A DNA stretch of 38,441 nt from a virus: IMG/VR virus record IMGVR_UViG_3300045988_109852, positions 1 through 38,441 of that record; one strand, given 5' to 3'. Positions within the stretch are counted from its first letter, which is position 1. Every line of letters begins with the position of its first letter. The position numbers and the translations under genes were made by a program. Positions 4,902 through 38,441 of the stretch are shown here, piece after piece. Below the pieces are notes generated by a model. That model did no database searches and was not told the DNA's origin. It worked only from the letters and a program-made list of their open reading frames with translations.

Positions 4902-5177
4902 TCACATCGGCCAGTACGCCGCGTAGAAATTCCGGCGCAGCTCGTATATCCGGCCCACCGGCACGCTCGTCTCGCGGCTCACCGTCTCCGGCGATTTGTT
5001 TTTCAAGAGAACGGCGATGAGGGCACGCCCCTCGGCCTGCCCCTTCGCTGTGCTCTCTATCGTTTTCCGGATCTCGTCCTGCGCCGGCGGCGGCAGATTC
5101 CGGTACGCCTCCAAGAAAGCATGTACGATCCGCTGCTGCCATACCGCCCCGCAGCCCTTCATCGGCCGGAATTTCAA
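4902..5177 (-). CDS. Putative late-gene transcriptional regulator (small HTH, sigma region-4/ArpU-RinA-like position)
   Basis: 91 aa with an HTH-like segment ETVSRETSVPVGRIYELRRNF. It sits immediately upstream of terS. Confidence 0.45.
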   Translation of the reverse strand: MKFRPMKGCGAVWQQRIVHAFLEAYRNLPPPAQDEIRKTIESTAKGQAEGRALIAVLLKNKSPETVSRETSVPVGRIYELRRNFYAAYWPM

Positions 5178-6046
5178 TTCTTCGCCTCCTTTTTAGCCTC
5201 CCTTGTGCAAAGGGAGGTGGCGGCATCGCCGCCTTCCTCCCCCTTGCCTCCCCTGACAGGGGAGGTGGCAGCCGGAGGCTGACGGAGGGGTTTTCCGCCG
5301 ACATTTGTTTTATCAGAACGCGCAGAGACGCGCGCGCCGTTGCCTTTTCTTTCCTTCTCCTTTCGGACGTAGCGGACGTAGGCGGAATAAAACCCGCTCT
5401 CCTCGTCCCGCGTCTCGGTCTGCTCTCGGATGGATGCGTCCTTCGGGAGCTTCATCCTGCTGTGCGCGTAAACCGGCACCGGCTCGGTGTATACCGGCTT
5501 TTCCAGCCCGCGGCTCGGATGGAATTTCTTTTTGCCTTCCTCGCCCTTGGCGTTGGAGATCATGTACCGGGCAACGCCGGTATAGTCCCCGCTCCCGTCC
5601 AGCCGGCGGTAGGTAACGCCCTGCTCCGGCCAAAGCGTGCATATGCTCTCATAGTCCATCGCCGGGAGGACGATGTGGAAATGCGGCCGAGCGTTCCCGA
5701 TCTCATTTTTCCGGCCATGCGAGTAGACGTACTTGAGATTCGCTCCTTGTTCCTTCCGATACAACGCGCGGAGCTTGCGCAAAAACCGGTCGAACACCGC
5801 TTGAGCGTCATCCCAGGATATTTCTCCCTCCCCGAAGGAGAGCGTGAGCCATACGTCGCCCGTGCCGAAATTGCAGTTGAGCGTGCGGGCAAGACTCTTC
5901 ACGGCGTTGATCTCGTTTCGCATGATCTTTCGGATGCTGGACTTCTTGGCTCTCGTTCCCCGCCGAACGCGCTGGCCGCCTCTCTTTGTCGGCATCCAGA
6001 CGCGGCGGATCTCCTCGGTCCTGCCGGAGATGATCTTGTATTCCAT
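5174..6046 (-). CDS. HUH rolling-circle replication initiator-like protein
   Basis: Three motifs occur in order: VWLTLSF (motif 1), RPHFHIVLP (HUH motif 2) and GVARYMISNAKG (catalytic Tyr motif 3). The preferred start is the ATG at 6046, with AAGGAG 11 nt upstream; the ORF track starts at a GTG at 6058. The last ~35 codons are translations of repeats B1 and A7. Confidence 0.7.
   Translation of the reverse strand: MEYKIISGRTEEIRRVWMPTKRGGQRVRRGTRAKKSSIRKIMRNEINAVKSLARTLNCNFGTGDVWLTLSFGEGEISWDDAQAVFDRFLRKLRALYRKEQGANLKYVYSHGRKNEIGNARPHFHIVLPAMDYESICTLWPEQGVTYRRLDGSGDYTGVARYMISNAKGEEGKKKFHPSRGLEKPVYTEPVPVYAHSRMKLPKDASIREQTETRDEESGFYSAYVRYVRKEKERKGNGARVSARSDKTNVGGKPLRQPPAATSPVRGGKGEEGGDAATSLCTREAKKEAKN
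5196..5233 (+). repeat. Structured repeat, family A variant (copy A7, lacks purine tail)
   Basis: GCCTCCCTTGTGCAAAGGGAGGTGGCGGCATCGCCGCC. Both stems carry compensatory changes relative to A1: CCTCCCTT/AAGGGAGG and GGCGGC/GCCGCC. Confidence 0.8.
5243..5292 (+). repeat. Structured repeat, family B (copy B1)
   Basis: CTTGCCTCCCCTGACAGGGGAGGTGGCAGCCGGAGGCTGACGGAGGGGTT. It lies inside the 3' end of the HUH gene. Confidence 0.85.
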
Positions 6047-6156
6047 GATGGCAAACACTCCTTTTTCCTCCCTGGTCGTAAAGTTATCCTTTTAACAAGT
6101 CCGTAAAAATTCGCGCACGCGCACGCGAATTATATAAAGTATCGCCGGTCTTTTCT

Positions 6157-6208
6157 CCTGCCTCCCTCCCCGAGGGGAGGTGTCAGCCAAAGGCTGACGG
6201 AGGGAGTC
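6157..6208 (+). repeat. Structured repeat, family B (copy B2)
   Basis: CCTGCCTCCCTCCCCGAGGGGAGGTGTCAGCCAAAGGCTGACGGAGGGAGTC, upstream of the HUH gene. It shares the extended flank TTTCCGCC..CATTT with B1. Confidence 0.85.
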
Positions 6209-8607: not shown

Positions 8608-10230
8608 TTATTTATTGTTGGATTCTTCAAAATGGTGTTTTGTAACAGCGATTGGAAATTCTTCAATCTCCGAAGCCCATCTTGCGGTTCCCGCTCCGTG
8701 GATGCTTTCCCAGCAGAGTGGGAAGCCGCCGATCCCATCAAACAGGCTGCCGAGCGTCGCGCCATCCGGAAGATACGACGCCATTCTCCCGAACATCCAG
8801 CGCCAGAACGGGAGCGCGATGGAGTTGCCGAGCGCCTTGTACTTCGGCGCGTCCGCTTCCTTGTGTACGCGGCCTTTCTCGTCCGTCCAGTCGCCGATGC
8901 CGACCCATCCGTCCGGATACCCTTGAAGCCGTGTACATTCCAATGGGGTAAGCCGACGAACGACCATGCGCTCCATAACGTGCTGTTGTGTCCCGCCGCT
9001 CGCATGAGCTTTCAACGTGCCGAATTGGTCTATGTAAGCGTTTTTCTCGTCGTCGATGCTTATTACAAGATCCGTAGCGTCTTTGGAATCTCGCTGTTTG
9101 CAGGAAGAAACGATTTCCGACTCTTTATAGTCTCCAAACCCCTGCATCGAAAACGTACAGGGTACCTGGTTTCCGCCGGTCCCCATTCTCGCTTGCAATG
9201 ATGGGGACGACACATCTCTGCTCTCGCGTATCACGTCATTTGCGTGGCTCATGTCCAGGATGCACACACCGCCTTGATTTTTGCTTGGGTCTGGCGGAGA
9301 TGTATCAAGCGTTTTTGCTACGTCAACCGATCTGCACCCGCTGTTCGGGTTTTTACTTTTCATCGAATTTGACGCAAGGGAATCGAAACTAAAAGCCATG
9401 ACCGCCGGTCGGTCAATCGTATTGAGGGTGTAGCTTATATCCTCTTTCCATCCCTTGCCATTGCATCCGGCCGTATCGGCACGGTCTATTCCGTTGCCCT
9501 GTAAGCAGAAGATTTGAGCTCCAGAACAGTTTTCAGCACCTCCGGCAGTTTCTTCCCGCGCTGTTCCGCCCTCCGGAGGATCCCGGCGCACGCTTTCGGC
9601 GTCAGGTTGTACTTCGGGTCGGGACGCTCTTCCAGAATCTGCGATAACTTCGTGGGCACCGGGATCTTCGGCTCCTCCGAAACGTTCAAAGAGGATATCC
9701 CCTGCAGTGGATCCGTTAAAATCGACCACCATGCTGATACGCCGTCTGCGCTGGGGAACTCCCCAGTATTGTGCGTCGTGCGTTCTCCATGCGACACTCC
9801 ATCCGTCGCCGAGCATTCCTCCGGCTTTCGTCCACTTCTGCTTGTCCGGCAGTCGAGGAAGAGAAAACCCCGGTTCTGCGATGCGTACAGCTTCTTCCAG
9901 CACGGCTCCGAAATCTCCGAATCCGTCCTTGAAGTTGCTGCTGAATGCGCCTGGCACATTTTCCCAGACCATATACCGAGGTCGAACAAGCTCACCTGTC
10001 CGTCCAATGCTTCTGTCATGCTCTCTCATCTCCTTGACGATCCGTATCTGTTCCATGTACAAGCCGGAACGAGCACCGGCAAGTCCTGCACGTTTCCCTG
10101 CGATGCTCAAGTCCTGGCAAGGACTCCCGCCGGTGATGCACCAGACGGGCTCAACTTCTGCGCCATTGATCTTTGTGATGTCTCCTAAATGCTTCAAGGT
10201 CTTTTTCTCCGGCCTGCCATCTTCAGGCAT
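8608..10230 (-). CDS. DNA (cytosine-5) methyltransferase with circularly permuted motif order
   Basis: Motifs occur in this order: GDITKI (III), GGSPCQDLS (IV), WENVPGAF (VI), QYWGVPQRRRR (VIII), a variable region, RRLTPLECTRLQGYPDGW (IX), ALGNSIALP (X). Motifs LGSLFDGIGGF (I) and WASEIEEFP (II) follow only at the C-terminus. Confidence 0.85.
   Translation of the reverse strand: MPEDGRPEKKTLKHLGDITKINGAEVEPVWCITGGSPCQDLSIAGKRAGLAGARSGLYMEQIRIVKEMREHDRSIGRTGELVRPRYMVWENVPGAFSSNFKDGFGDFGAVLEEAVRIAEPGFSLPRLPDKQKWTKAGGMLGDGWSVAWRTHDAQYWGVPQRRRRISMVVDFNGSTAGDILFERFGGAEDPGAHEVIADSGRASRPEVQPDAESVRRDPPEGGTAREETAGGAENCSGAQIFCLQGNGIDRADTAGCNGKGWKEDISYTLNTIDRPAVMAFSFDSLASNSMKSKNPNSGCRSVDVAKTLDTSPPDPSKNQGGVCILDMSHANDVIRESRDVSSPSLQARMGTGGNQVPCTFSMQGFGDYKESEIVSSCKQRDSKDATDLVISIDDEKNAYIDQFGTLKAHASGGTQQHVMERMVVRRLTPLECTRLQGYPDGWVGIGDWTDEKGRVHKEADAPKYKALGNSIALPFWRWMFGRMASYLPDGATLGSLFDGIGGFPLCWESIHGAGTARWASEIEEFPIAVTKHHFEESNNK
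9486..10019 (-). CDS. Nested alternative-frame ORF inside the methyltransferase gene (candidate overlapping gene)
   Basis: 177 codons open, with AAGGAG 10 nt upstream of the ATG. Composition is protein-like, including the helical motif KLSQILEERPDPKYNLTPKACAGILRRAEQRGKKLPEVLKTVLE. Third-position G+C is much higher in this frame than in the MTase frame across 9522-9675. Confidence 0.35.
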   Translation of the reverse strand: MTEALDGQVSLFDLGIWSGKMCQAHSAATSRTDSEISEPCWKKLYASQNRGFLFLDCRTSRSGRKPEECSATDGVSHGERTTHNTGEFPSADGVSAWWSILTDPLQGISSLNVSEEPKIPVPTKLSQILEERPDPKYNLTPKACAGILRRAEQRGKKLPEVLKTVLELKSSAYRATE

Positions 10231-10271
10231 GGGCGGCCATCCCCATACGACGGGCCTTCCGCCCGTTTCGG

Positions 10272-10427
10272 CTAATCGATAATTTTTTCACTGTACAACC
10301 GGGCAATGTTCTCCCAGTCGTCGGCGTTCACATTGCCCTGATATCCAATCAGGAAGCACACAACATCCATCCTGTCCCAGCTGCGCTTTGTGCTCTCTAC
10401 ATACTTTGCGATCTCGTCGTAGCTCAT
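10272..10427 (-). CDS. Hypothetical small protein
   Basis: The internal Met of the 74-aa ORF gives a 51-aa product, MSYDEIAKYVESTKRSW... The RBS is weak. Confidence 0.35.
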   Translation of the reverse strand: MSYDEIAKYVESTKRSWDRMDVVCFLIGYQGNVNADDWENIARLYSEKIID

Positions 10428-12083: not shown

Positions 12084-12415
12084 TGAATTTCTCCTTTCTT
12101 TCTAAGGCTCCCGCCCACGCTCTTGCCTCCCCTAACAGGGGAGGTGTCAGCGCAGCTGACGGAGGGGTTCGGCTCCCTTGTGCAAAGGGAGCTGTCGGCG
12201 CAGCCGACTGAGGGATTGTCGTCCCCGCCGCAGCGCTCGTCCTTCCTGCACCACTCCGGCGTCCTCACGCTGTCCGGATGCGGATTCCCGTCCCGCACAA
12301 CGTGCAGCACCCGCCCGAACCTGTCGCCGTTCCCGGTGTACAGGCAGCGCACCGCCTGCTTCCCCTGCGGCCACTGGTCCAGCGCGATGTGCGGACATCC
12401 CCTGCACGTTTTCAT
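12080..12415 (-). CDS. Hypothetical Cys-rich protein whose 3' end reads through repeats A3 and B3
   Basis: The start at 12415 overlaps the upstream stop (ATGA). The body is MKTCRGCPHIALDQW... The last ~45 codons (DDNPSVGCADSSLCTREPNPSVSCADTSPVRGGKSVGG...) are repeat-derived. Confidence 0.5.
   Translation of the reverse strand: MKTCRGCPHIALDQWPQGKQAVRCLYTGNGDRFGRVLHVVRDGNPHPDSVRTPEWCRKDERCGGDDNPSVGCADSSLCTREPNPSVSCADTSPVRGGKSVGGSLRKKGEIQ
12122..12170 (+). repeat. Structured repeat, family B (copy B3)
   Basis: CTTGCCTCCCCTAACAGGGGAGGTGTCAGCGCAGCTGACGGAGGGGTTC. It directly abuts A3. Confidence 0.9.
12171..12220 (+). repeat. Structured repeat, family A (copy A3)
   Basis: Identical to A1 over 50 nt. 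Confidence 0.9.
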
Positions 12416-13322: not shown

Positions 13323-13375
13323 GGCTCCCTTGTGCAAAGGGAGCTGTCAGCCGTCAGGCTGACTGAGGGATTGTC
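13323..13375 (+). repeat. Structured repeat, family A (copy A4)
   Basis: Hairpin 2 is replaced by GTCAGCC-GTCA-GGCTGAC, a compensated change. It lies 7 nt from the stop of the 13383-13622 gene. Confidence 0.9.
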
Positions 13376-21031: not shown

Positions 21032-21057
21032 GGCTCCCCTTTCGGGGAGCCTTTTTT
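21032..21057. terminator. Hairpin at the end of the giant gene
   Basis: GGCTCCCC-TTTC-GGGGAGCC with TTTTTT on the plus side. It overlaps the stop codon of the giant ORF. Confidence 0.45.
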
Positions 21058-24000
21058 ACTTCAAGCTCGGCAGCTTCCCGTACTTCAGGAAGTAATCGAT
21101 CGGGCTGCCCTCCTCGACGTACACCGTCCGGTTCCCTGCCTTGAGCGCCTTCCTCTTTGCCTGCGTCACGGCTTTCTGAATGTCCGTCCCGCTCGCCGTC
21201 TTCGTGAAGTCCGCGATCACGTTCCCGCTCACTTTCGGCGTTTTGGACGTTCCGCCCGCCTTCGCGGAGGATGCCGTGCCGGACCTCGGGATGATGATCT
21301 CCGGCGCTTTCGGCGTCGGGGCCTTGAGCGCCGTCCTCTTTCCTCTCCCGCGCCGGCCTCCGGAGCCGCCCGAACCTCCGTTCCACTTCTGATTCCTCGC
21401 GCTCTTCGCTGTGTACCCTGCGGCAACGTAAAGGGCGTCCTTCTGCTCCGGCGGAATGTCCAGGCTGTTGATGTACTCCACAACTTTTGCCTTCTTCGAT
21501 CCGGAAATGCTCTTGCCGTTCTCGTCCTTGTCGGCGTGCATCTCCTTTGTGGCAAAGTAGTAGTCGTAGTACGTCTCGTAGGAAACTCCCTTGGCGTACG
21601 CGGTGCGGGCCTTGTCGTAGACGTCCGCGTTGTAGGTGCGCAGTGCATACTCTGCGCCGAATACCTCGCGGTTTGCTTCGCGGTATACGATGGCGTCCAT
21701 GCGGCTCTCCGCCTGGTCCTCGGTGATGCCGTACAGCTCGGCGTACTCGGCGATGGCCGCGTCGTTGTCGGTCGAGAGCTCCGGGTGCGCCTTGAGATAG
21801 TCGTTCACCGCCTCACGGTACGGCTCGGCCTGCGCGAGGATCTCCTTCTGCCGCTCGATGAGCTGCGCCTTCAGCGCCCGGACGAGCCGGTTCTTCTCGC
21901 CATCCGAAAGGCTCTTGTCGTTCTGGATCGCGCGGATCTGCTGGTAGTAGTCGTTCACCTCGTCGCCGGCATGAGAAACGTATTTCCGCGTGATGCCAGC
22001 TCCGATGTCGCCGTCGTTCGCGTCGTACTTGAGATCGTCCAGAAGATCGTAGTACTCGCCCGTGGTCTTGTTGGTGCTCGTGGTGTCGATGGTGAACGCC
22101 GCCTGCGGCGCCGCGAGCAGCCAGTGGCTCGACTTCGTTGCCGGAGTAATCAGTGGGAGCAGAAGGTCTCCTATTACGCCGGTGTACTGGTCGAGAAGGT
22201 AGTTGACCTTTTTCGGCGACACCTTGAACAGCTTTCCGATAGCCTTGGAGAGCTCGTCCGTTTTCTCGTCGTACCGGTCCTCCGGTCGGTAGTTTTGCAG
22301 ACGGTCGCTCTCGATGTTCCCGCCGTACCATGTCGTGCCGGGGTTGTCCGGGTTCGTGAGCTTTGCCTGCGTCCACGCGGTAGCGATGTTCTGGTTGAAA
22401 ATGTCCGTGGGAGCAATGTTGCTCTTGATGACCTCGAACACGTCGGAGAACTTCACGTCCTCGCCCTTCTGTTTTTCCTGCGTGTACACAGCGGCAGTGC
22501 TCAGTACAGCGATAGCGCGCCCCTTTGGTATCTTGATCCAGTACCCGTTGCCGAACATTTTCCCGGCGTTGATAAGATAATAGTTTGCCTTCGTGCTGGC
22601 CGGAATATCGTCCCAGTCGTCATCATCGCCATGCATCAGGCCGTTTAGCAGCAGCGGCGGCAGATTGATGAGCGCCGCCTTTAGGATGAGAGACGCCGCG
22701 GCTTTCACGCTGCGGGTCTCCGTAGCGTTCCGGATGAACTTATCAAAGCCCTGTACGGACGGGTTGAGGAACGGCACGAGATACCGGTTGAGTGCCTTGG
22801 TGACGCTGCCGCCGCGGGCAAAGTTCGTCGTGATATCCGCCGCGCCGAGCATCGCCTCCATGAGGTCGCTCTGCGTGAATTTTCCGGTTTTCACTCCGTC
22901 CACCGTCTTGCTCCCGCCCTTGTTGGCAAGGATGGTCATAAACTCCGCAAGGCGGGGCGCCGCTTCGATGGCCTGTCCAAAGCTCTCATACCGTGCCGCA
23001 GCTTTGCCCAGCGCGTTCTTCGGCTCCTTCACCATGCCGGTCGTATAGTCCAGCATGGAGGCGTAGGAGCCGCCCAGCGCCTTGTACTGCTGCCAGATCT
23101 CGCCGTTTTTTCGGATTTGGTTCCATGCGCTCCAGTACATCTTTTCCCACGTCTTCCAGTCCGTGGAGTAGAACCCTGCGTCCTGCCAGTCTCGCACGCC
23201 GTTGCGAATCATGAAGAACGGATTGTACCCGGTGCATAGCGCCTTGAAGAGGTCGTTCAGCTTCTTCATAGCCTTTGCCGCGCCGTAGCTTGCGAACTTG
23301 TCCGGCTCAAAGGCTTTCATGGCCGCTGTCAGCCCCTCGTCCATCGTGATGTCGTAGGCCCTGCCGTTATCCTTCACCGAGAACACATTCTCGAATACCG
23401 GCTTGTAGTCCTCGTCGCTTTCAATGGCGGCCTCCGTCGGCGTGTACTCGCTCTCTGCAACGTTCCAGATGTACTTCTCCGCCGCTTTCGCGTTCCCGTC
23501 GTACTCGCGTACCAGCGCAAGGCCGAACTGGTTTAGGCCGGCGTTCCGCATCGTGGATACCGTCTTTCGGGAGAGCGCCGTGTGCAGCGGCAAGAGCACG
23601 CCGTCGCTGCCGACGGCCCGCCCGATGGCGTTCGATACGACGATGCCGCCGTTTCGCCGGGCGCTTCTGGCTCTCTTGCTGTTCGTACCCTCCTCGCGGA
23701 AGGTGGGGATGTAGTGCGGATACCGCTTTTTCAGCGCATTGGCAAACTCCGGCGTGATGAGTCCCGCCTCCACGCGGTAGCGGATGAGATCGTCCGAATA
23801 CTTATAGACCTCCTTCGCCCATTCCTTGAACTCCGGGTTCTTTGCCTCGAGAAGCTGCGCCGCCGTCTGGGAATCGTCCGCCGTCACGTCGTATCCGAAT
23901 ACCGGCTTCAAGCCCTGCTTTTCCACAATAGCCCGCTGCCGTTCCAGCTCCAGCGCGTAGGCCGCGCCCTCCGCTACGGACGTAAGGCTCGGCGCCTCGC

Positions 24001-27000
24001 CGTTGTGCGCCGCAAGATAGATCTCGTGCGCCGCCTGGCGCACGACCGGTGAATCGCTGTCGCTGTTTGCGATCCGGCGCAGCTCTTCATTCGACAGCTC
24101 CCGGAGCTCCGGGTATTTCTCCTTTACCCAGCGGAGATTTTCCTTGATCCGCTCCAGCTCGCCGCTGTTGTCGTACTTCATGCGGTCCACGTTGTGCATG
24201 TGCAGAAGATAGAGCTGAAAATCGCGGTACTTTGTCTCATTCTTCCGCATCGGGGCGAGGGTATCCGCAAGGCTCGCGCCGATCCTGTGGCCGTCGATGT
24301 CGGTACGCGCGCCGCCCTTGGCGATCCAGTTTCCCGCGCGCTGGGAGTAAGCCCCGGCATTGAAGTAGTACCCCTCAAGGCTCTTGCTTCCCGTAGCCTT
24401 GGCGATCCGGCGCACCGTGTCCCCGGCATTCACGAACATCCGCATAGCCCCGCTCGTGATTTTCTCAAAGTCCTCGCGGAAATTCCGCTCGGCCTTTATG
24501 ACCTCGGACGTGACCTTTTCCGTCGTGGCGGCGATCGTCGTCCCGGCAGCCGTGTTTTCCGTCTCCGCAGCCTCGCTGCTTTTCGGTGACGGCTCCGTGC
24601 TGTCAAGCTGTTCGGGATCTCCGAACAGCTCGGCGATCCGCGCGTCCTCGTCCGCGGTTTTCTCGGCCTCGAATTTCTTGGCGCGCTGGTAGTTCTCCTC
24701 CGAGAAATTCTTGTTGGCCATCGTGATAACTTCCTCTGCCGCATCTCTCGCCGCCGTCTCCTTCAGCGCCCGGACAAGTGTGTCTGCCTTGTGTCCGTCG
24801 TGGAAGATCGTCGCCTCGAAGTAGCCGCCGATCGGCGTCGGCTTCACCTCAATTTTGAATGTAGAATCCCTCGGCGTCCCCTTGAGGAAACCGGTCATCT
24901 GCACCTTCACCTCGGACTTGCCCTTGCCCATAAGCTCCCGGTAGACCTCGCCGGAGCTTTTGTTCGGCACGAATCGCTGTCCCGCTCCGAGATTTTCCCG
25001 CGCGCGGAGCCGTTCCGTCTCCCGCCGGTCGTTCTCCTGCGATTCTCTCATCTTATCTTTCCGTGCATTTCTGGCCGCAGCGCTTTCTTCCGCGTCATCC
25101 AGTGCTTCCGCGACGATCTCGTTGTTCCACGCCCGGCTCTCGTAGTCTCCCTCCACGGCATAAAGCGTTGTGTTGGCAGCGGTAACGACCGTTCCGGTTC
25201 CGTCGCCTCCAAACGGAAACCACGCGCGCACAGCTCCGTTTATGTCCTGCCCGACAACGAGCCCGTAATGTCCGGATTTGTCCTTCACCCATGTCCAGAA
25301 CGGCACGGTCTGCACCTCTGTCCCGCTCTCGGTTTTGAACACAGGATACTCCTTGTTTTCCGCTCTTTTCAGATCGCTTTGATAGTTGCCGCGGAGCTTC
25401 GTGTCCGGGTTGTAGAGGATGCGCGACGCGATCTCCGCCCGCATCCGGTCTCCCGCCCATCGGATCGCTTCCATTTTGGCCTTCGACTTATGCTTGGCGA
25501 CAACGTTTTTCCCGTCGCTGATATAGGCGTAGTACTCTCCGTTTTCCTCGCGGATGTTCACACGGTAGAAATTGCCTCCGCCCTCGTTCAGCGTCGCCTG
25601 GCCGCCGGTTTCCAGCCGTTTTTCCATGCCGGATATCTGCTTTTCATACTCTGCCACGTTCCGGACGGTGCGATTTTCCGCCATTTTGGGAGTCGTATTC
25701 TGGTACTTCTCGGCCTCGGAGAGCTTTTTTCTTCCCTGTTTTTTGTTGTCAGAATCCCGGTTTTCCACCTCCACACTCGCTTTGCCGGAAGAATTTTCTT
25801 GACTATTCCCCTCCGTCTGGCGTATAGTAACCGTAGAAGAAGACTTTCCCCTACGAGCGCCAGTTTCGTCAACGGAATTGGAAGAGCCATTAAAACTGGG
25901 AGGGCTTCTTCTTTCTATTTGTCCGACGTTGTACACAACTACCCCGTTTATGCCGTCGGGAGTTGAGATTGTCACCTGATAATACGTCCCATCGAAGTCA
26001 CAGAACCATGCGCGCCGGTAGTACCATCCATTTTTTGCGAAGTCACCGTGTATCGGCGTCCCCGTTCTTCCGATTTCGTCCGGTTTAGCCCTGTCGGATG
26101 TTTTTTCAGATATCTTCACCAGCTCGTCAATGTGTGCTTCCGCGTTCAGCTTGGTTTCATATTCGGCGTCTGTAAGCGGTCGAAGTCTCCCATTCGCGTC
26201 TCGCACATAGTTCCGGAAGCTCGCTTTCCCGGCGGTGTCCTCCGTGATCTTCAGCACGTCGCCGGAATCCGTCGTAAGGATCACGTCCTCGCCGTTGCGG
26301 ATCTTCCGGTTGATGTAGCCCTCGATCTGGTCGGCCCAGCTGTCCGGGTCATCCCCGAAGATCACCTGCCGGTCAGCCTGCACGTACTTTTTCCCGTCCG
26401 GAAGAACCACGATGCTCGCCCTTCCGGAAGATTTTTCTTGACTATCCCCGGTATCAGAGTGTACAATAGCATCAGACGAAGCCTTCGGCCCTCTGGTGAC
26501 CCCGTCTTGAACGGTAACCCCAGTTTTTGTGTTGCCGGGGGCTTCGTTCTTTATGTTTATGTAGTTTCCGTCCTGATCAACAACTTCGTCCAGATAGAAC
26601 TTGTTTGTTCCCTGATCTCGGTTTACTACAGCGGCTACATAAACGGTTGCGTCTCCCAATCCTACCGGAGCAGCAATCATGTAGCTGTCGTACCCTCGTC
26701 CTTTCCAATTCAGATTCGTCTTGATGATGTAGCCTTTTTCGATTACTTCCTTTATCGCTGCAACGCCCAGCACCTTTGACCGGTTCGGTTTGTGGTTTAT
26801 AATTCCGTCAACTCCGTAGCGGTTCAGCTCCACTTCGCCGAATCCTTCGCGGTGCGCGACGTTCCCCACAGACGCGAACAAATCAGAAATTTGTTGATCC
26901 AACGGTTTCGACGCATCATTCAATTCTTCCCCCGTAAGGTGCTTTACGACTTCCGAATTTTGCAGAAGCGGTATGCTGCTCGCCAGAACATAGGCGTTGC

Positions 27001-29650
27001 TGTTTGGATTTGATTCCAACGCCGACTTTGACTTTTCAATGTATACAGCGCCCTGTCCTTCCGGCGGTCCCGTCGTCTTCTGCTGCGCCTCTGCCCTCCG
27101 GGCCGGGGCGTTTCTTTCTGTCTCGGCGCGCACGGCTTCCTGCACCGGCGCGTCGCCGGAGAACCAGTTCAGCCCCGCGTAAGCGTCCGCCGCGATCTCC
27201 TCGGTGAGCAGCCGCTCGATCTCGTCCACGCTCATATTTGCGAAATCGTAGACCCCTGCGTAGTCCGCTTTATAGGCATCCCGCATGGCGTCGTATTCCT
27301 CGGCGGTCATGCTCTCGCGGATCACCTCGTCCGACGCCTGCAAAACCTCCTCGGAGATGTAGTTGTGGAACAGCTCGTGCCGCACCAGCGCCTCCGGGCT
27401 GATAACGTTGCCTCTGCTGTCCACGGCGTCCACGCGGAAGAACACCCTCCCGCTCTCGGTATAGGCGTTCGCGTAGCCGTCTCCCACCTGGATTGCCCCG
27501 CGCACCGCTACCGGCTCAAGCCCGTTCTCCAGTACGGCGTCGTAGGCGCTCTTCGCCTCGCCGCCGAGCCTCTGCGCATCCACGACGGTCACGGCCTCCG
27601 TGCCGCCGTTTCGGATGCCGAGCTGCGCCGGATTTACTTGCCGTAGATCCGCTTGCGCGTCCGTTCCCACGCCTCGTTGAACTTCCGTTCGGCCTCCGGT
27701 GAGAGCTTGTAGCCCTCCTTCGGCGCCTTCCGCAGCTTGTCCGCGGGAACCGACATAAACAGCCCCGCTTTCTTCCCGGTGATAAGCACTCTGTTCATTG
27801 TTCATTTCCTCCTGAATGTTGATCGCCGCCGCGGGCGTCGTGCTGATTCCTTCGTTCTGCGCCTTCTGCGCGCCCACAGGCGCGTTTTGCGTCCCGGCAG
27901 TATAAACACCTTCCTGCGTGCCGGAACGCCCGCCCGCCTCCATCTGCTGCGTCAGATACTCCGCCGCGCGCTTCATATCTTCCTTCGTGCCGATCTTCTG
28001 CCGGAGATCGTCGGCGTTCTCCGCGTCGGTCAGCTCGGCCAGCGCGTATATAACGCCGGGGTTTTCCGTCTGCGCGTCCTGCATCATCTGCACAACGTTC
28101 TTCGGCGTGGTGTTCAGCCGCTCGGCTGTCTGGTTGATGTTCGCGCGATTCGTTGTGTACTGCACGCCGCTCGACCCCAGTGTTGCCAGCGCGCCGCCGA
28201 GGAACGAAAGCCCCTCCTGTCCGAGAACGGCAAGCACGGTCGCAAGCTCCGCGTGCTTCTTCTGCCAATCCGTGCCGCTGGTCCGGTAGTATTCGAGCAT
28301 CTTCGGGATCCCGCTCTCTTCCGTGCCGAACGCCGCGTCGATCGCAAGGTTTACCACGCCGTTCGCCGCGTCCGACATGACCTCCTCCATGCCCTCGGGG
28401 ATCATCGTGAGCGCCATGCTCTTCACAAAGCTCAGCGGATTTGCCTTGATCTTTCGGATGACCCATTCGCCGCCGACCGCTTCTGAGGCGTACTCGATCG
28501 CGCCGCGCGTCAGACCGAGCGCCAGCGCTCCGGCGTTGGAGTATCCCTTTTCCTTGCTCTCGGCGATGGACAGGGAAGCCGCCTCCGAGCTCATCAGCGC
28601 CGAGCCGAGAATGTTCGTCGCCTTCATCAGCGTGTCGCCGGTAAGCCCCACGGCCTCGCCGATGCCCTTGGCGACAAGCGCGTTCATCGCGCTGTCCGCG
28701 GCGCTCATCGCCGTGTTGTAGACGAAGCTCCCGACCTTGCCGCCCATCCCCGGATTCGTTTCCTCGATGTGCTGCGAGGTGTCGGCGCGGAGATCCTGCG
28801 TGATGTTGCTCGCCTGCCGCCACTTGGAATAGGGGTTGATCTCCTGCCCCTTCGCCGTGCGCACCGCATCGTCCGCCATAGCGATCATGCTCGTGATCGT
28901 CCGGGTAGGCTGCGCCGCAACGGTCATGGCGCTTGCCAGCGTCCGCGTCGCCGCGTTCTTTCCGAGCGCCTCCGTCGTCGCCCGGTTCGTGCCGGTGTAC
29001 CACTGCTTATCCAGCTCCGGCTCAAGATCGCTCAGATAGGCATTCGCCGCTTTTTTCCCCTGCGTAGCGTACAGGTAGTTGTATACGCCGATCTCATCAT
29101 CGGTCATGAAGGCGTATTTCCCGTAGTCCTGTCCGCGTCCCTGCGCCTGCTGCACGTCGGACTGCGCGCGGAAGTTCCCGATGTTGTTGATGTAGTCATA
29201 CCGGGCGTCGCCGAAGAGCTTCCTCTTGCTCTCGCCGCTCTTGGAAAGCTCGGTATAGTCGCTCGCTTTGAGAATACCGGCATACTTCCCGGAGCCGGCC
29301 GAGCTCGCCCGGTCATCCGCCTTTCCGTACACGCTGTTGAAAACGACGCTCGTGCCCTTCGCCGCATTCCCGCTCTTCATCTGCGCCGCCGCCTGTGCGT
29401 AGAGACTCTGCGTCCCGCTCTGTTTTGTCTGCGCCGCAGCGTCCGCATAGGGCGTCTGCATGGTGCTCTGTCCCTGCGAGGCTTTCAGCGCCTCGGTGTA
29501 CAGATTCAGCGGGTTGGTGCGTACCGGTTTTCCCGCTTTCGCGAAGTACGCGTCCATATTGCTTGCCGGCTTCTCTCCGGATGCCGATACAGAGGAAGTC
29601 GTTTGACTTCCTCTGTTTGCCTTTGCGAAATATTCGTCGAGTCTGCTCAT
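21056..29650 (-). CDS. Giant (~2860 aa) multi-domain virion/ejection-type polyvalent protein with HExxH metallopeptidase motif
   Basis: One uninterrupted ORF. The likely start is the ATG at 29650, which overlaps the upstream stop (ATGA) and has GGAGGGAAG upstream. HELFH is at nt 27365-27379. The protein has a Gly/Ala-rich membrane-like N-terminal region, at least two internal modules bounded by a repeated linker, and a basic tail. Confidence 0.8.
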   Translation of the reverse strand: MSRLDEYFAKANRGSQTTSSVSASGEKPASNMDAYFAKAGKPVRTNPLNLYTEALKASQGQSTMQTPYADAAAQTKQSGTQSLYAQAAAQMKSGNAAKGTSVVFNSVYGKADDRASSAGSGKYAGILKASDYTELSKSGESKRKLFGDARYDYINNIGNFRAQSDVQQAQGRGQDYGKYAFMTDDEIGVYNYLYATQGKKAANAYLSDLEPELDKQWYTGTNRATTEALGKNAATRTLASAMTVAAQPTRTITSMIAMADDAVRTAKGQEINPYSKWRQASNITQDLRADTSQHIEETNPGMGGKVGSFVYNTAMSAADSAMNALVAKGIGEAVGLTGDTLMKATNILGSALMSSEAASLSIAESKEKGYSNAGALALGLTRGAIEYASEAVGGEWVIRKIKANPLSFVKSMALTMIPEGMEEVMSDAANGVVNLAIDAAFGTEESGIPKMLEYYRTSGTDWQKKHAELATVLAVLGQEGLSFLGGALATLGSSGVQYTTNRANINQTAERLNTTPKNVVQMMQDAQTENPGVIYALAELTDAENADDLRQKIGTKEDMKRAAEYLTQQMEAGGRSGTQEGVYTAGTQNAPVGAQKAQNEGISTTPAAAINIQEEMNNEQSAYHREESGAVYVGSRGQAAEGAEGGLQALTGGRTEVQRGVGTDAQADLRQVNPAQLGIRNGGTEAVTVVDAQRLGGEAKSAYDAVLENGLEPVAVRGAIQVGDGYANAYTESGRVFFRVDAVDSRGNVISPEALVRHELFHNYISEEVLQASDEVIRESMTAEEYDAMRDAYKADYAGVYDFANMSVDEIERLLTEEIAADAYAGLNWFSGDAPVQEAVRAETERNAPARRAEAQQKTTGPPEGQGAVYIEKSKSALESNPNSNAYVLASSIPLLQNSEVVKHLTGEELNDASKPLDQQISDLFASVGNVAHREGFGEVELNRYGVDGIINHKPNRSKVLGVAAIKEVIEKGYIIKTNLNWKGRGYDSYMIAAPVGLGDATVYVAAVVNRDQGTNKFYLDEVVDQDGNYINIKNEAPGNTKTGVTVQDGVTRGPKASSDAIVHSDTGDSQEKSSGRASIVVLPDGKKYVQADRQVIFGDDPDSWADQIEGYINRKIRNGEDVILTTDSGDVLKITEDTAGKASFRNYVRDANGRLRPLTDAEYETKLNAEAHIDELVKISEKTSDRAKPDEIGRTGTPIHGDFAKNGWYYRRAWFCDFDGTYYQVTISTPDGINGVVVYNVGQIERRSPPSFNGSSNSVDETGARRGKSSSTVTIRQTEGNSQENSSGKASVEVENRDSDNKKQGRKKLSEAEKYQNTTPKMAENRTVRNVAEYEKQISGMEKRLETGGQATLNEGGGNFYRVNIREENGEYYAYISDGKNVVAKHKSKAKMEAIRWAGDRMRAEIASRILYNPDTKLRGNYQSDLKRAENKEYPVFKTESGTEVQTVPFWTWVKDKSGHYGLVVGQDINGAVRAWFPFGGDGTGTVVTAANTTLYAVEGDYESRAWNNEIVAEALDDAEESAAARNARKDKMRESQENDRRETERLRARENLGAGQRFVPNKSSGEVYRELMGKGKSEVKVQMTGFLKGTPRDSTFKIEVKPTPIGGYFEATIFHDGHKADTLVRALKETAARDAAEEVITMANKNFSEENYQRAKKFEAEKTADEDARIAELFGDPEQLDSTEPSPKSSEAAETENTAAGTTIAATTEKVTSEVIKAERNFREDFEKITSGAMRMFVNAGDTVRRIAKATGSKSLEGYYFNAGAYSQRAGNWIAKGGARTDIDGHRIGASLADTLAPMRKNETKYRDFQLYLLHMHNVDRMKYDNSGELERIKENLRWVKEKYPELRELSNEELRRIANSDSDSPVVRQAAHEIYLAAHNGEAPSLTSVAEGAAYALELERQRAIVEKQGLKPVFGYDVTADDSQTAAQLLEAKNPEFKEWAKEVYKYSDDLIRYRVEAGLITPEFANALKKRYPHYIPTFREEGTNSKRARSARRNGGIVVSNAIGRAVGSDGVLLPLHTALSRKTVSTMRNAGLNQFGLALVREYDGNAKAAEKYIWNVAESEYTPTEAAIESDEDYKPVFENVFSVKDNGRAYDITMDEGLTAAMKAFEPDKFASYGAAKAMKKLNDLFKALCTGYNPFFMIRNGVRDWQDAGFYSTDWKTWEKMYWSAWNQIRKNGEIWQQYKALGGSYASMLDYTTGMVKEPKNALGKAAARYESFGQAIEAAPRLAEFMTILANKGGSKTVDGVKTGKFTQSDLMEAMLGAADITTNFARGGSVTKALNRYLVPFLNPSVQGFDKFIRNATETRSVKAAASLILKAALINLPPLLLNGLMHGDDDDWDDIPASTKANYYLINAGKMFGNGYWIKIPKGRAIAVLSTAAVYTQEKQKGEDVKFSDVFEVIKSNIAPTDIFNQNIATAWTQAKLTNPDNPGTTWYGGNIESDRLQNYRPEDRYDEKTDELSKAIGKLFKVSPKKVNYLLDQYTGVIGDLLLPLITPATKSSHWLLAAPQAAFTIDTTSTNKTTGEYYDLLDDLKYDANDGDIGAGITRKYVSHAGDEVNDYYQQIRAIQNDKSLSDGEKNRLVRALKAQLIERQKEILAQAEPYREAVNDYLKAHPELSTDNDAAIAEYAELYGITEDQAESRMDAIVYREANREVFGAEYALRTYNADVYDKARTAYAKGVSYETYYDYYFATKEMHADKDENGKSISGSKKAKVVEYINSLDIPPEQKDALYVAAGYTAKSARNQKWNGGSGGSGGRRGRGKRTALKAPTPKAPEIIIPRSGTASSAKAGGTSKTPKVSGNVIADFTKTASGTDIQKAVTQAKRKALKAGNRTVYVEEGSPIDYFLKYGKLPSLK

Positions 29651-31002
29651 TTTTTCTTCCCTCCGGGCCAAGTCTTATACCCCGCGCTCGTCGGCGTTTT
29701 GTTATACGCTTTGGCGGTTGCCGCGTAGTCGGTGTAGTGGATCGCGTCCCGGAACTGTTCTTCGGTGATATCCCCGGCTTTGTACCGCGCCGCCAGATCG
29801 TTCCAGATCGCCACCCGGTCTTTCCCGTCGTTCAGATCTCCGAGGATCGCATCCTGCAATCCTTCCGTAGAAACCGTAACACTCCCGCCGCCACCGCTTC
29901 CGCTGTAGTATCCGGAATACGACGGCGTCTTGACATACCCCAGCGTCTTCGCAAGCTCCGGGTTCGCCGCGATCCACGCCTTCTGCATCTGGTCAATCTC
30001 GCTCTGCGTGTAGCCGAGTCCGAGATAGCCGGAGAAGTCGCCGTACTGCGCCATGTTCTGTGCCTTCGTCGCGGCGTCCTGCTGCTGCTGAAGAATGAGA
30101 TTCATCATGTTCGCGTAGAGATTCTGCTGCGCCTGCGCGTTCGCCTGATCCCGCGCGGCGTTCGCCTGATACTCTGCGTCCGCGCCCTGCTGCCGCAGCT
30201 GCATAATGGCAGCGATACGCGCGGCTTCGTTCTCGTTCAGCCGCTCGCCGTAGGCCGTATCCAGCCCCAGCCTGGCCGATTCGCTCATGCCGCCGCTGTA
30301 GCCTCTCGCTGCCATCTCCTGCGGCAGCACGCGCAGTGATTCCATGTAGTCGCGGTAGAGCTGTTTGTTGAGACTGCCGTACTGGTCTCCAAGCTCGCCT
30401 ACGCCCTTCTCCGCCTGCGCGAGAGCCCGCTCGGCGGCGGCCTTCGCCGCGTCGTTGTTGGCCTTCACCGCGTCGTCGTACATTTTCTGGTACTGGTCGC
30501 GCAGCTCGTCCAGATACGTCCGCTGCGGCTCGCCCGGCGTTTCCTCCGGCGTTCCTTCCGTCGTGCCCTTCTGCGCGTCGCCGTTGGGGTCGATGTACGT
30601 CACCTTGCCGCCGCCGGACGTACCCGGCTGCGTCGGCGTCGTGGTCGGCTGCCGCGCTCCGTTCCGGTTCGGCAGTACGCCCGCTCCGGCCATAGCGCCG
30701 GTTATCGCTCCGCTTGCCGCATTCGCCGCCGTCGCGTCCATGCCCGTCTGGTCATAGAGCCCTTTTCGCGGCGGCGCCGCCGCTCCCGTCCGGTCGGGAT
30801 CGATGGTCCCCTGCAGAGACGAGCTGTTCGCGCCGTTTTTGATCGCCTCCGCATACAGATTCCCGCTCTGGTTGTTATTCGACCGCGGGCTCGAATAATC
30901 CGTTTTGCTGATCCCTACGCCTTTTCCAGTAGCGGCATCGGTGAAGCGATTTTCATACCGGTTGTTGGCCTGCTTGTTCACCCAATCCCAAAACTTAGCC
31001 AT
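29647..31002 (-). CDS. Hypothetical virion-associated protein (Gln/Ala-rich coiled region)
   Basis: 451-aa ORF with strong RBS GGGAGGAAGGAAG. It lies between the portal and the giant gene. Confidence 0.6.
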   Translation of the reverse strand: MAKFWDWVNKQANNRYENRFTDAATGKGVGISKTDYSSPRSNNNQSGNLYAEAIKNGANSSSLQGTIDPDRTGAAAPPRKGLYDQTGMDATAANAASGAITGAMAGAGVLPNRNGARQPTTTPTQPGTSGGGKVTYIDPNGDAQKGTTEGTPEETPGEPQRTYLDELRDQYQKMYDDAVKANNDAAKAAAERALAQAEKGVGELGDQYGSLNKQLYRDYMESLRVLPQEMAARGYSGGMSESARLGLDTAYGERLNENEAARIAAIMQLRQQGADAEYQANAARDQANAQAQQNLYANMMNLILQQQQDAATKAQNMAQYGDFSGYLGLGYTQSEIDQMQKAWIAANPELAKTLGYVKTPSYSGYYSGSGGGGSVTVSTEGLQDAILGDLNDGKDRVAIWNDLAARYKAGDITEEQFRDAIHYTDYAATAKAYNKTPTSAGYKTWPGGKKK

Positions 31003-36890: not shown

Positions 36891-37445
36891 TTACCCCCGG
36901 AAAAGGCTCTGCGCGATGCGCCGGTTCTCGCCCGGCTGCGTCGTCCTGAGAAGCGATACCTGATAATTGTACATCTGCAGCATCGCCCCGTAGTCCATCA
37001 CGAGATCGGGGAGGAGCTGCTGCGCCGCCACATAGTACGGCATGCACTCGCAGGCGTCCGGCGCGATCTCAAATTCGTAGCTGTCCGGCGCATCCGTCGG
37101 GATCGTCTGCGGCATGGCGAAATATTCGACCGTCACCTCCGCGCACCCCTCCGGAATGACGAGCTTCCCGCCCATCCACCGGAAGCGCCGCGTCGCATTC
37201 TTCCCGTCCGCCCATATCCGGTACAGCGAGTAGAAATTCTCCGGCATGGCATAGACGGTTTTTCCCAACGTTGGGACAATGACCTCCTCCCGGAGGATCT
37301 TCCTGATCTGCGCGAGAGTCTTCTGCGCCATGTCGAAAAACGCCGTCATCTTCTTCTCGATGTCCTCGTCGTGCTCGATCTCTCCGCCCGCGCTGTGCTC
37401 GTCGAGGAGCATGTATACCTTGTTTTTCGCTTCTCCGAGCGTCAT
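36891..37445 (-). CDS. Putative head-tail adaptor/connector protein
   Basis: 184-aa ORF. Function is assigned by position only. Confidence 0.35.
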   Translation of the reverse strand: MTLGEAKNKVYMLLDEHSAGGEIEHDEDIEKKMTAFFDMAQKTLAQIRKILREEVIVPTLGKTVYAMPENFYSLYRIWADGKNATRRFRWMGGKLVIPEGCAEVTVEYFAMPQTIPTDAPDSYEFEIAPDACECMPYYVAAQQLLPDLVMDYGAMLQMYNYQVSLLRTTQPGENRRIAQSLFRG

Positions 37446-37469
37446 ATCGTTTCCTCCTTACCGCTCAAA

Positions 37470-37522
37470 GGCTCCCTTGTGCAAAGGGAGCTGTCAGCCG
37501 CAAGGCTGACTGAGGGATTGTC
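37470..37522 (+). repeat. Structured repeat, family A (copy A5)
   Basis: Hairpin 2 is GTCAGCC-GCAA-GGCTGAC. The rest is identical to A1. Confidence 0.9.
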
Positions 37523-37537
37523 GTCTTTTTTTACCGA

Positions 37538-37565
37538 AAACAGGGCGAGTCACCCCGCCCTGTTT
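37538..37565 (-). terminator. Hairpin after the holin gene
   Basis: AAACAGGGCG-8 nt-CGCCCTGTTT. The U tract lies partly within the stem. Confidence 0.4.
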
Positions 37566-37576
37566 CCCTCACATAA

Positions 37577-38351: not shown

Positions 38352-38402
38352 CTTGCCTCCCCTAACAGGGGAGGTGTCAGCCGGAGGCTGACGGAGGGGT
38401 TC
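38352..38402 (+). repeat. Structured repeat, family B (copy B4)
   Basis: Same as B3 except hairpin 2 is GTCAGCC-GGA-GGCTGAC. Confidence 0.9.
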
Positions 38403-38441
38403 GGCTCCCTTGTGCAAAGGGAGCTGTCGGCGCAGCCGACT
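38403..38441 (+). repeat. Structured repeat, family A (copy A6, truncated by the window end; equals A1 on circularisation)
   Basis: 39 nt identical to nt 1-39. Confidence 0.9.

Follow-up and report, generated by a model that had tools for sequence, protein, structure and literature searches.

Comparison of a short repeat from a phage genome with its relatives in bacteria and in other phages revealed that the repeat, located at positions 37470-37522 (+ strand) of the 38,441-nt stretch of viral DNA analysed here (the window), is probably a dispersed intergenic element organized like an intrastrand DNA triplex of class II with the purine motif. Based on sequence comparison and on analogy with characterized motifs, we read it as a previously unlisted, hairpin-carrying variant of the BoxC/PIT intrastrand triplex repeats, and infer that the triplex forms, and that it does so in DNA rather than in RNA. 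Whether DNA triplexes are under selection in bacteria has been an open question since BoxC/PIT, for which a triplex was observed in vitro while neither a function nor an in vivo structure was found. The third strand of the present element is kept matched to the purine arm, following the purine-motif code, in Firmicutes, Actinobacteria and Alphaproteobacteria, and this comparative evidence suggests selection on the three-stranded fold itself.

The complete copy reads GGCTCCCTT gtgca AAGGGAGCT / GTCAGCC gcaa GGCTGAC / TGAGGGATT gtc on the + strand. Its first part, hairpin 1, is composed of a pyrimidine (Y) arm (GGCTCCCTT, 37470-37478), identified as the Watson-Crick partner of the purine arm in both DNA and RNA folds, a loop 1 recognized from sequence and fold (GTGCA, 37479-37483), and a purine (R) arm (AAGGGAGCT, 37484-37492), which is the proposed central strand of the triplex. 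Hairpin 2 (GTCAGCC gcaa GGCTGAC, 37493-37510) follows immediately and takes the place of loop 2 of the class II motif, and the purine tail TGAGGGATT (37511-37519) would act as the reverse-Hoogsteen third strand, running antiparallel to the R arm. The final T of the R arm faces the first G of the Y arm in a G.T wobble, and this basal G..T of hairpin 1 was found in 160/209 unique copies. Arm variants of hairpin 1 are compensatory across copies, and the same holds for hairpin 2, with variants such as GTCGGC/GCCGAC in other copies and a family-wide consensus of G(T/G)C-NNN-loop-NNN-GAC; a search with the hairpin 2 pattern returned 4 matches vs 0 expected. Folding with RNA as well as DNA parameters yielded two adjacent hairpins, the tail remaining unpaired in the DNA prediction, and the DNA fold was supported by a z-score of -4.6 with 0 shuffles equally stable. 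Copies of the same family (family A) gave z-scores of -3.7 to -5.1 with both hairpins formed and the tail free in DNA and RNA predictions, and the z-scores of families B and C were weaker. On one side of the copy is a terminator-like hairpin that follows the holin gene, and on the other side ORF 36891-37445 starts. The terminator-like hairpin itself (AAACAGGGCGAGTCACCCCGCCCTGTTT, 37538-37565), situated between the holin gene and the element, is flanked by T/A runs on both strands and showed a weak Rfam match to Termite-leu (22 bits, under the cut-off).

The window represents a temperate phage that encodes a portal protein, a holin, a GH25 endolysin, an integrase, a DNA methyltransferase and a replication initiator. 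Its ends, 1-39 and 38403-38441, are identical over 39 nt, from which we concluded that the genome is circularly permuted with a length of about 38.4 kb and that the copy cut at the window end (38403) is the copy found at position 1. A further feature is a 2871-aa ORF (21056-29671, - strand), whose only match is PHROG 22978 with no function assigned and which may encode a giant virion or tail protein. Nine distinct element copies were detected, more than the earlier note had known of, and 9/9 lie on the + strand, starting at 1 (= 38403), 2773, 5196, 6160, 12125, 12171, 13323, 37470 and 38355. Their general order is pyrimidine arm, loop, purine arm, GTC..GAC hairpin and purine tail, and the Y/R/tail blocks read CTCCCTT/AAGGGAG/GAGGGAT in family A and CCTCCCCT/AGGGGAGG/GGAGGGG in family B. 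Besides the copy described above, family A includes 1-47 (the same as 38403-38441; hairpin 2 GTCGGC gca GCCGAC), 2773-2819 (GTCGGC gga GCCGAC) and 13323-13372 (GTCAGCC gtca GGCTGAC), all three with the tail TGAGGGATT and on the + strand. A tandem pair at 12125-12217 (+) is composed of a family B copy with the tail GGAGGGGTT followed by a family A copy with the tail TGAGGGATT. A second family B copy, 38355-38401 (+; GCCTCCCCT aac AGGGGAGGT, hairpin 2 GTCAGCC gga GGCTGAC, tail GGAGGGGTT), directly precedes the A copy at 38403 and thereby forms a second tandem B-A pair. The family C copy, 6160-6206 (+), consists of GCCTCCCT ccccga GGGGAGGT, hairpin 2 GTCAGCC aaa GGCTGAC and the tail GGAGGGAG, and is located in the divergent region adjoining the replication-initiator gene. 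In the same region, between that gene (5174-6058, -) and the + strand genes, we observed a near-perfect palindrome, AATTCGCG CAC GCG CAC GCGAATT (6110-6137), which could be an operator or an origin. The remaining copy, 5196-5233 (+), lacks the tail, hairpins 1 and 2 being followed by TTCCTCCCC, and falls within the final codons, at the 3' end, of the called replication-initiator ORF.

Relatives were gathered without using the tail as a criterion, namely by hairpin 2 only in viral contigs and by hairpin 1 only in genomes, which provided 239 loci. These were scanned with a structural descriptor (a hairpin with a purine 3' arm and a second hairpin immediately after it), which was used instead of a covariance model because the MAFFT alignment misplaced the variable loops. 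The descriptor gave 227 matches vs 22 in reversed-sequence controls; a mismatch-agnostic version afforded 201-209 unique copies, and the covariation set comprised 201 unique copies with 139 arm/tail haplotypes. The copies originate from phage contigs, Clostridia, Bifidobacterium and Alphaproteobacteria, the architecture being present in many Clostridia (including Oscillospiraceae, Acutalibacteraceae, Faecousia and Ruminococcus) and, among the Alphaproteobacteria, in Sphingomonas, Caulobacter and Brevundimonas. Three unannotated fecal phage records in the GenBank phage collection match the element, and the same collection contained no match to the 8.4-kb right end of the window. No Rfam family covered the element in a gathering scan of the window and 12 loci, a scan of 37420-37570 at E <= 10 returned nothing relevant, and a literature search with strings of the element sequence retrieved only unrelated primer and oligonucleotide matches.

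Analysis of this collection bore out the central claim of the earlier note, namely that the tail is the purine arm read backwards and changes when the arm changes, well beyond the window: among the 201 unique copies, none of which was found through its tail, the relationship holds in a single register and along a single diagonal of mutual information. Mirror identity was 0.81 with tail position k set against arm base pair k+1, and 0.42-0.45 in registers 0, 2 and 3. The mean mirror identity amounted to 6.50/8 vs 5.29 +/- 0.06 when tails were shuffled among copies, and the mean contiguous run of allowed triads from the junction to 6.9 vs 2.6 +/- 0.18 with shuffled arms, both shuffle statistics and the z-scores being inflated because the copies are related to one another. 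The diagonal of mutual information and the slid-register control are independent of this kinship: at positions 1, 7 and 8, which are variable, arm and tail shared 0.80, 0.75 and 0.74 bits, with off-diagonal values <= 0.17, which is beyond what simple subfamily linkage would give. Joint changes of all three blocks were found in several lineages, as in CTCTCCC/GGGAGAG/GAGAGGG, CCCCC/GGGGG/GGGGG and CTTCC/GGAAG/GATGG, and a shortened arm, AAGGAG, goes with the tail GAGGA. Within the window, the arm and tail strings that had been given for families A and B and for the copy near 6157 are correct in sequence. The mirror claimed for the latter (6157-6208, here 6160-6206; arm GGGGAGG, tail GGAGGGAG) holds at 6/7 positions and fails at one, and since the arm of its relatives, GAGGGAGG, mirrors the tail perfectly, the arm of the window copy carries one extra G.

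The identity of the paired positions follows a recognizable code. Antiparallel purine-motif (reverse-Hoogsteen) triads place G over a G-C pair and either A or T over an A-T pair, and T over a C-G pair of the arm was counted here as allowed as well. Within the stems, an arm G was found opposite a tail G in 703/763 cells, an arm A opposite a tail A in 187/258 and opposite a tail T in 58/258 cells, and an arm C opposite a tail T in 75/92 cells, while a tail T opposite an arm G occurred in 7 cells only. Over eight tail positions, the purine-motif code fits 92% of the positions. A recurrent mismatched triad, a tail A over an arm G, occurs in well-populated subfamilies with tails such as TGAGAGG and TGATGAGG and makes up 46/763 of the G cells; in addition, the tail is missing in window copy 5196 and in a few of the 201 unique copies, and an ortholog in locus L063 has an altered tail next to an unaltered arm.

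The same covariation bears on a competing proposal of the earlier note, according to which the tail acts as a two-state switch that forms Watson-Crick pairs with the Y arm (AGGGA:TCCCT) and displaces hairpin 1. With it we considered a related alternative, in which the tail joins the 5' flank in a three-way junction. Five or six such pairs can be drawn, the minimum free energy folds of some window copies do pair the tail with the 5' flank, and the maximum helix length of tail with Y arm slightly exceeds that of shuffled controls (5.49 vs 5.27 +/- 0.04), an excess that does not count as evidence for a switch because the mirror of a low-complexity purine tract produces it anyway. The energies contradict this proposal: with RNA parameters, the switched state reaches -18.3 vs -29.0 kcal/mol and is thus about 10.7 kcal/mol less stable than hairpin 1, and with DNA parameters it reaches -5.4 vs -16.3, which is worse than hairpin 2 alone (-8.0). 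Complementarity between flank and tail (4.72) equals that of shuffled sequences (4.71), and over 8-9 positions the tail covaries with the Y arm in parallel register, a pattern that antiparallel pairing cannot yield. Thus, we abandoned the displacement of hairpin 1 and consider any switch of this kind highly improbable.

The purine-motif triplex, by comparison, accommodates the layout in most respects. Class II intrastrand triplexes, composed of a pyrimidine strand, a purine strand and a third strand, were defined by Hoyne and Maher and by Holder et al., as outlined in the text of the latter (PMC4666352). The corresponding block order (5' pyrimidine, purine, reverse-Hoogsteen 3') was observed in nearly all of the 201 unique copies, the Y and R arms pair over 8-9 bp as a Watson-Crick hairpin, and, where at least 6-8 triads with at most one mismatch are expected of the third strand, copy 37470 offers 7 canonical triads plus one T over C-G. 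Counted from the junction, its potential triads are T*C-G, G*G-C, A*A-T, three consecutive G*G-C, A*A-T and T*A-T, with the ninth tail base, a T, opposite the last A of the loop. The element departs from the class in its loops, of which loop 1 (3-8 nt) fits the short-loop rule while loop 2 is a hairpin of 15-25 nt (18 nt in this copy); the loop limit is a search parameter rather than a physical requirement.

In the proposed mechanism, the purine-rich + strand would be exposed as a single strand, for instance in the course of replication or repair or at any other stage involving single-stranded DNA, whereupon hairpin 1 (the Y:R duplex) and hairpin 2 would fold. The tail, leaving hairpin 2, could then return along hairpin 1 in its major groove, with a polarity opposite to that of the purine arm, and form reverse-Hoogsteen triads of the G*G-C, A*A-T and T*A-T types together with a T over one C-G pair, the basal G.T pair being skipped. 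Hairpin 2 would stand in for the 3-nt second loop of the BoxC/PIT/TM_ECO element of E. coli, into whose place it would presumably fit sterically; its role as a connecting loop, already suggested in the earlier note, is consistent with the data.

Which strand and which molecule would fold in this way was assessed by comparing the purine code with its counterpart on the complementary RNA. The alternative holds that the minus-strand transcript forms a pyrimidine-motif (class IV) triplex, in which a C/U-rich tail at the 5' side (UCCCUC in family A, CCCCUCC in family B) runs parallel to the purine arm, forms triples of the C+*G-C and U*A-U types and influences the stability, processing or translation of the mRNA of the gene just downstream. 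Several observations in phages would suit such a role. Nearly all genes neighbouring the phage copies are on the minus strand, so that the purine version is the template strand in this phage and all nine copies provide the mRNA with the pyrimidine version, and the copies occupy intergenic gaps shortly upstream of ribosome-binding sites. Viral loci mostly share this orientation relative to both flanking genes (39 opposite/opposite vs 10 same/same, the phage loci not being mutually independent), and the purine strand lies on the C-rich strand in 51/59 loci. In addition, pyrimidine-type intrastrand triplexes are possible in RNA, where purine-motif ones are not (PMC4666352), and the strong co-orientation in phages with the purine strand as template is not predicted by a purely DNA-structural role.

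The comparative data nevertheless favour the + strand folding as DNA over a minus-strand RNA. The purine code explains about 91-92% of the arm/tail cells, a count in which the 75 arm-C cells depend on the T*C-G assignment, taken from general triplex chemistry, vs about 79% for the pyrimidine code; the purine code fits better because a tail T over an arm A (58 cells) or an arm C (75 cells) turns into A*A-U and A*C-G on the complement, neither of which belongs to the pyrimidine motif. The non-canonical pairs that hairpin 2 accepts point the same way, since the purine strand shows 20 G.A pairs (always the second pair, GGC..GAC) and 10 G.T/T.G pairs, whereas mirror-type mismatches amount to 0 A.C and 1 T.C, a ratio of 30 to 1 that, together with the code fit, favours folding of the purine strand as DNA. 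Furthermore, the RNA triplex would require 4-5 consecutive C+*G-C triples, which depend on protonation and are weak at neutral pH according to established triplex chemistry, and the orientation to genes is mixed in bacterial genomes (20 same/same, 17 convergent, 16 opposite/opposite and 5 divergent). We therefore regard the RNA triplex as quite unlikely, and a put-like or nut-like antitermination RNA was set aside in view of the same mixed orientation. Of the triple-helix reading in the earlier note, a triplex on the + strand with purine (R*R-Y) triads is thus supported, in keeping with the class II order and the BoxC/PIT precedent, whereas the minus-strand RNA version it had preferred is disfavoured by the better fit of the purine code.

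The closest known system to this putative DNA triplex is BoxC/PIT/TM_ECO (Hoyne & Maher 2000, 2002, as cited in the text of Holder et al. 2015, NAR 43:10126, PMC4666352), with the consensus 5'-CCCTCNCCC N3-6 GGGNGAGGG N3 GGGNGAGGG. As single-stranded DNA, TM_ECO was seen by CD and NMR to adopt a stable triplex of class II, with 18 imino protons, a Tm of 70-82 C and a signature consisting of a CD minimum at 240, a maximum at 257 and a minimum at 280 nm, extra imino protons and N7 protection (PMC4666352). In vivo DMS footprinting detected no stable triplex, and the motif stays B-form as duplex DNA; no promoter or terminator activity was found for BoxC/PIT, which has been tied to local genomic instability (PMC4666352). 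The element shares with this system the succession of pyrimidine arm, purine arm and G-rich third strand on one strand, stems of 8-9 nt rich in G/C, a third strand with T*A-T substitutions, and an intergenic, multi-copy distribution; orientation to genes, unbiased in BoxC/PIT, is mixed in bacterial loci and strongly biased in the phage loci. In Caulobacter, the exact TM_ECO blocks even enclose such a hairpin as loop 2, GGGAGAGGG T [hairpin] GGGTGAGGG. Differences concern loop 2, which has 3 nt in TM_ECO and in the element corresponds to a hairpin of 15-25 nt, conserved as G(T/G)C...GAC, and the first triad, which in the element lies over a C-G or a G-C pair and covaries with it (T or G). The host range differs as well: TM_ECO was described from 262 proteobacterial genomes and not reported on phages, plasmids or transposons (PMC4666352), whereas the element occurs in Clostridia, Bifidobacterium, Alphaproteobacteria and phage genomes. 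The window copies do not match the BoxC/PIT/TM_ECO sequence consensus, block sequences being common to the Caulobacter copies only; because the window blocks differ and a hairpin occupies loop 2, the element is best described as a variant of the BoxC/PIT kind and not as a member of its sequence family.

Its absence from published catalogues can be attributed to loop 2, which exceeds the loop limits of both published searches, given in the text of PMC4666352 as 1-6 nt (ITxF) and 0-10 nt (Hoyne et al.). As the hairpin-looped form escaped these searches, intrastrand triplex motifs are probably more common than the catalogues show, also in gut Clostridia and the phages of these bacteria. Classic class II motifs with a 3-nt loop were also found in the same fetched loci (62 vs 2 in the reversed-sequence control), and Sphingomonas locus L124 contains both kinds. 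Such short-loop motifs, for example CCCCTCCCTgaaAGGGAGGGG ctg GGGGTGGG, were observed in alphaproteobacterial, cyanobacterial and Bacteroidota loci (L213, L122, L124, L170, L178, L185 and others). Compared with H-DNA, the element likewise features mirror-symmetric purine tracts and purine-motif triads, but its halves are only 7-9 nt long and about 18 nt apart with a palindrome between them, and its Watson-Crick pyrimidine partner is on the same strand. Because hairpin 1 supplies this partner in cis, the natural state would be a single strand folding twice and not a duplex unpairing one half. A G-quadruplex was rejected, since family A contains only two G tracts.

A second alternative dispenses with a triplex altogether and regards the repeat as a REP- or MITE-like double hairpin that might, for instance, protect mRNA 3' ends, work as an attenuator or be acted on by a single-stranded DNA transposase, with the tail as a recognition sequence. 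Arm and tail would then covary as one protein or guide reads both, comparable to the pairing of guide and cleavage site in IS200/IS605. The distribution of the repeat is in line with this idea: like REP/BIME elements and REPINs, which are mobilised by RAYTs, it is a short palindromic repeat dispersed in many intergenic copies per genome and depleted in divergent (promoter) regions, and the bacterial copies adjoin ordinary chromosomal genes (chloride channel, V-ATPase subunit D, TatD, melibiase). Where loci carry at least three copies (e.g. L055, L093, L192, L219), these are co-oriented in 18/22 cases, bacterial chromosomes included, which fits the double hairpin and could result from local duplication or from a replication-strand effect. 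Replacement of one copy at the same site in relatives points in the same direction: in the related phages L092, L101 and L110, at the site orthologous to window 38402/1-50, an unrelated hairpin, GCAAAGCCC gtcga GGGTTTGC, takes the place of the A copy that comes after the B copy. Since this hairpin occupies the orthologous site, the element alternates with another hairpin and not with an empty site.

Other observations speak against a mere double hairpin. By geometric reasoning, neither replication nor recombination generates mirror repeats, and a protein that binds as a symmetric dimer would need an inverted and not a mirror repeat. The preference for A or T opposite A and for T opposite C, together with the near absence of a tail T opposite an arm G, corresponds to triplex chemistry and has no obvious rationale in protein recognition. 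Incidental inspection showed no transposase, RAYTs included, in association with the copies. REPs, furthermore, consist of one imperfect palindrome tagged with GTAG or CGTC and lack a third covarying block, and the main text of the GTAG/CGTC REP paper (PMC3733652) makes no mention of Caulobacter, sphingomonads, clostridia, Faecalibacterium or bifidobacteria, so a REP/RAYT element with a CGTC tag was rejected. Taken together, we consider a triplex-free double hairpin unlikely. Translation-related use of the tail, as a Shine-Dalgarno sequence for a + strand gene, was discarded as well, since no start codon occurs at the right spacing in the window.

If the purine-motif triplex is adopted, the most likely consequence of the fold would be, by analogy with BoxC/PIT, that its structure acts as an obstacle or a signal on single-stranded DNA; according to published work, DNA polymerase is arrested by PIT elements in vitro. 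A more specific version, to which we assign a low probability, is that the fold serves as a functional single-stranded DNA signal read by a conserved enzyme such as a single-stranded DNA transposase, a primase, a helicase or a packaging factor. Should this be true, selection on the triad code across three phyla would be explained, and the strict co-orientation in phages would reflect a signal read on one particular strand during replication or packaging. With its nine co-oriented copies, the 38-kb phage provides a small and manipulable system for probing the role of the element.

Finally, a superficial resemblance to hammerhead ribozymes deserves mention. The hammerhead core consists of CUGANGA ... 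GAAA ... UH around three stems, and copies of the D subfamily, with the tail CUGAUGAGG, likewise combine two adjacent hairpins with a subsequent CUGAUGA-like string. This reading was rejected because the core is incomplete, the GAAA being absent and a G standing at cleavage position 17, because Rfam hammerhead models gave no match on the D-subfamily copies, and because the string fits the triad code. A genuine, canonical type II hammerhead ribozyme is present elsewhere in the window (10208-10273, - strand; 45.9 bits with Rfam RF02276, whose gathering score is 37), where the DNA methyltransferase ORF 8608-10230 has its 5' end, and a second type II hammerhead was found near an element copy in viral locus L107 (2887-2954, 49.9 bits).
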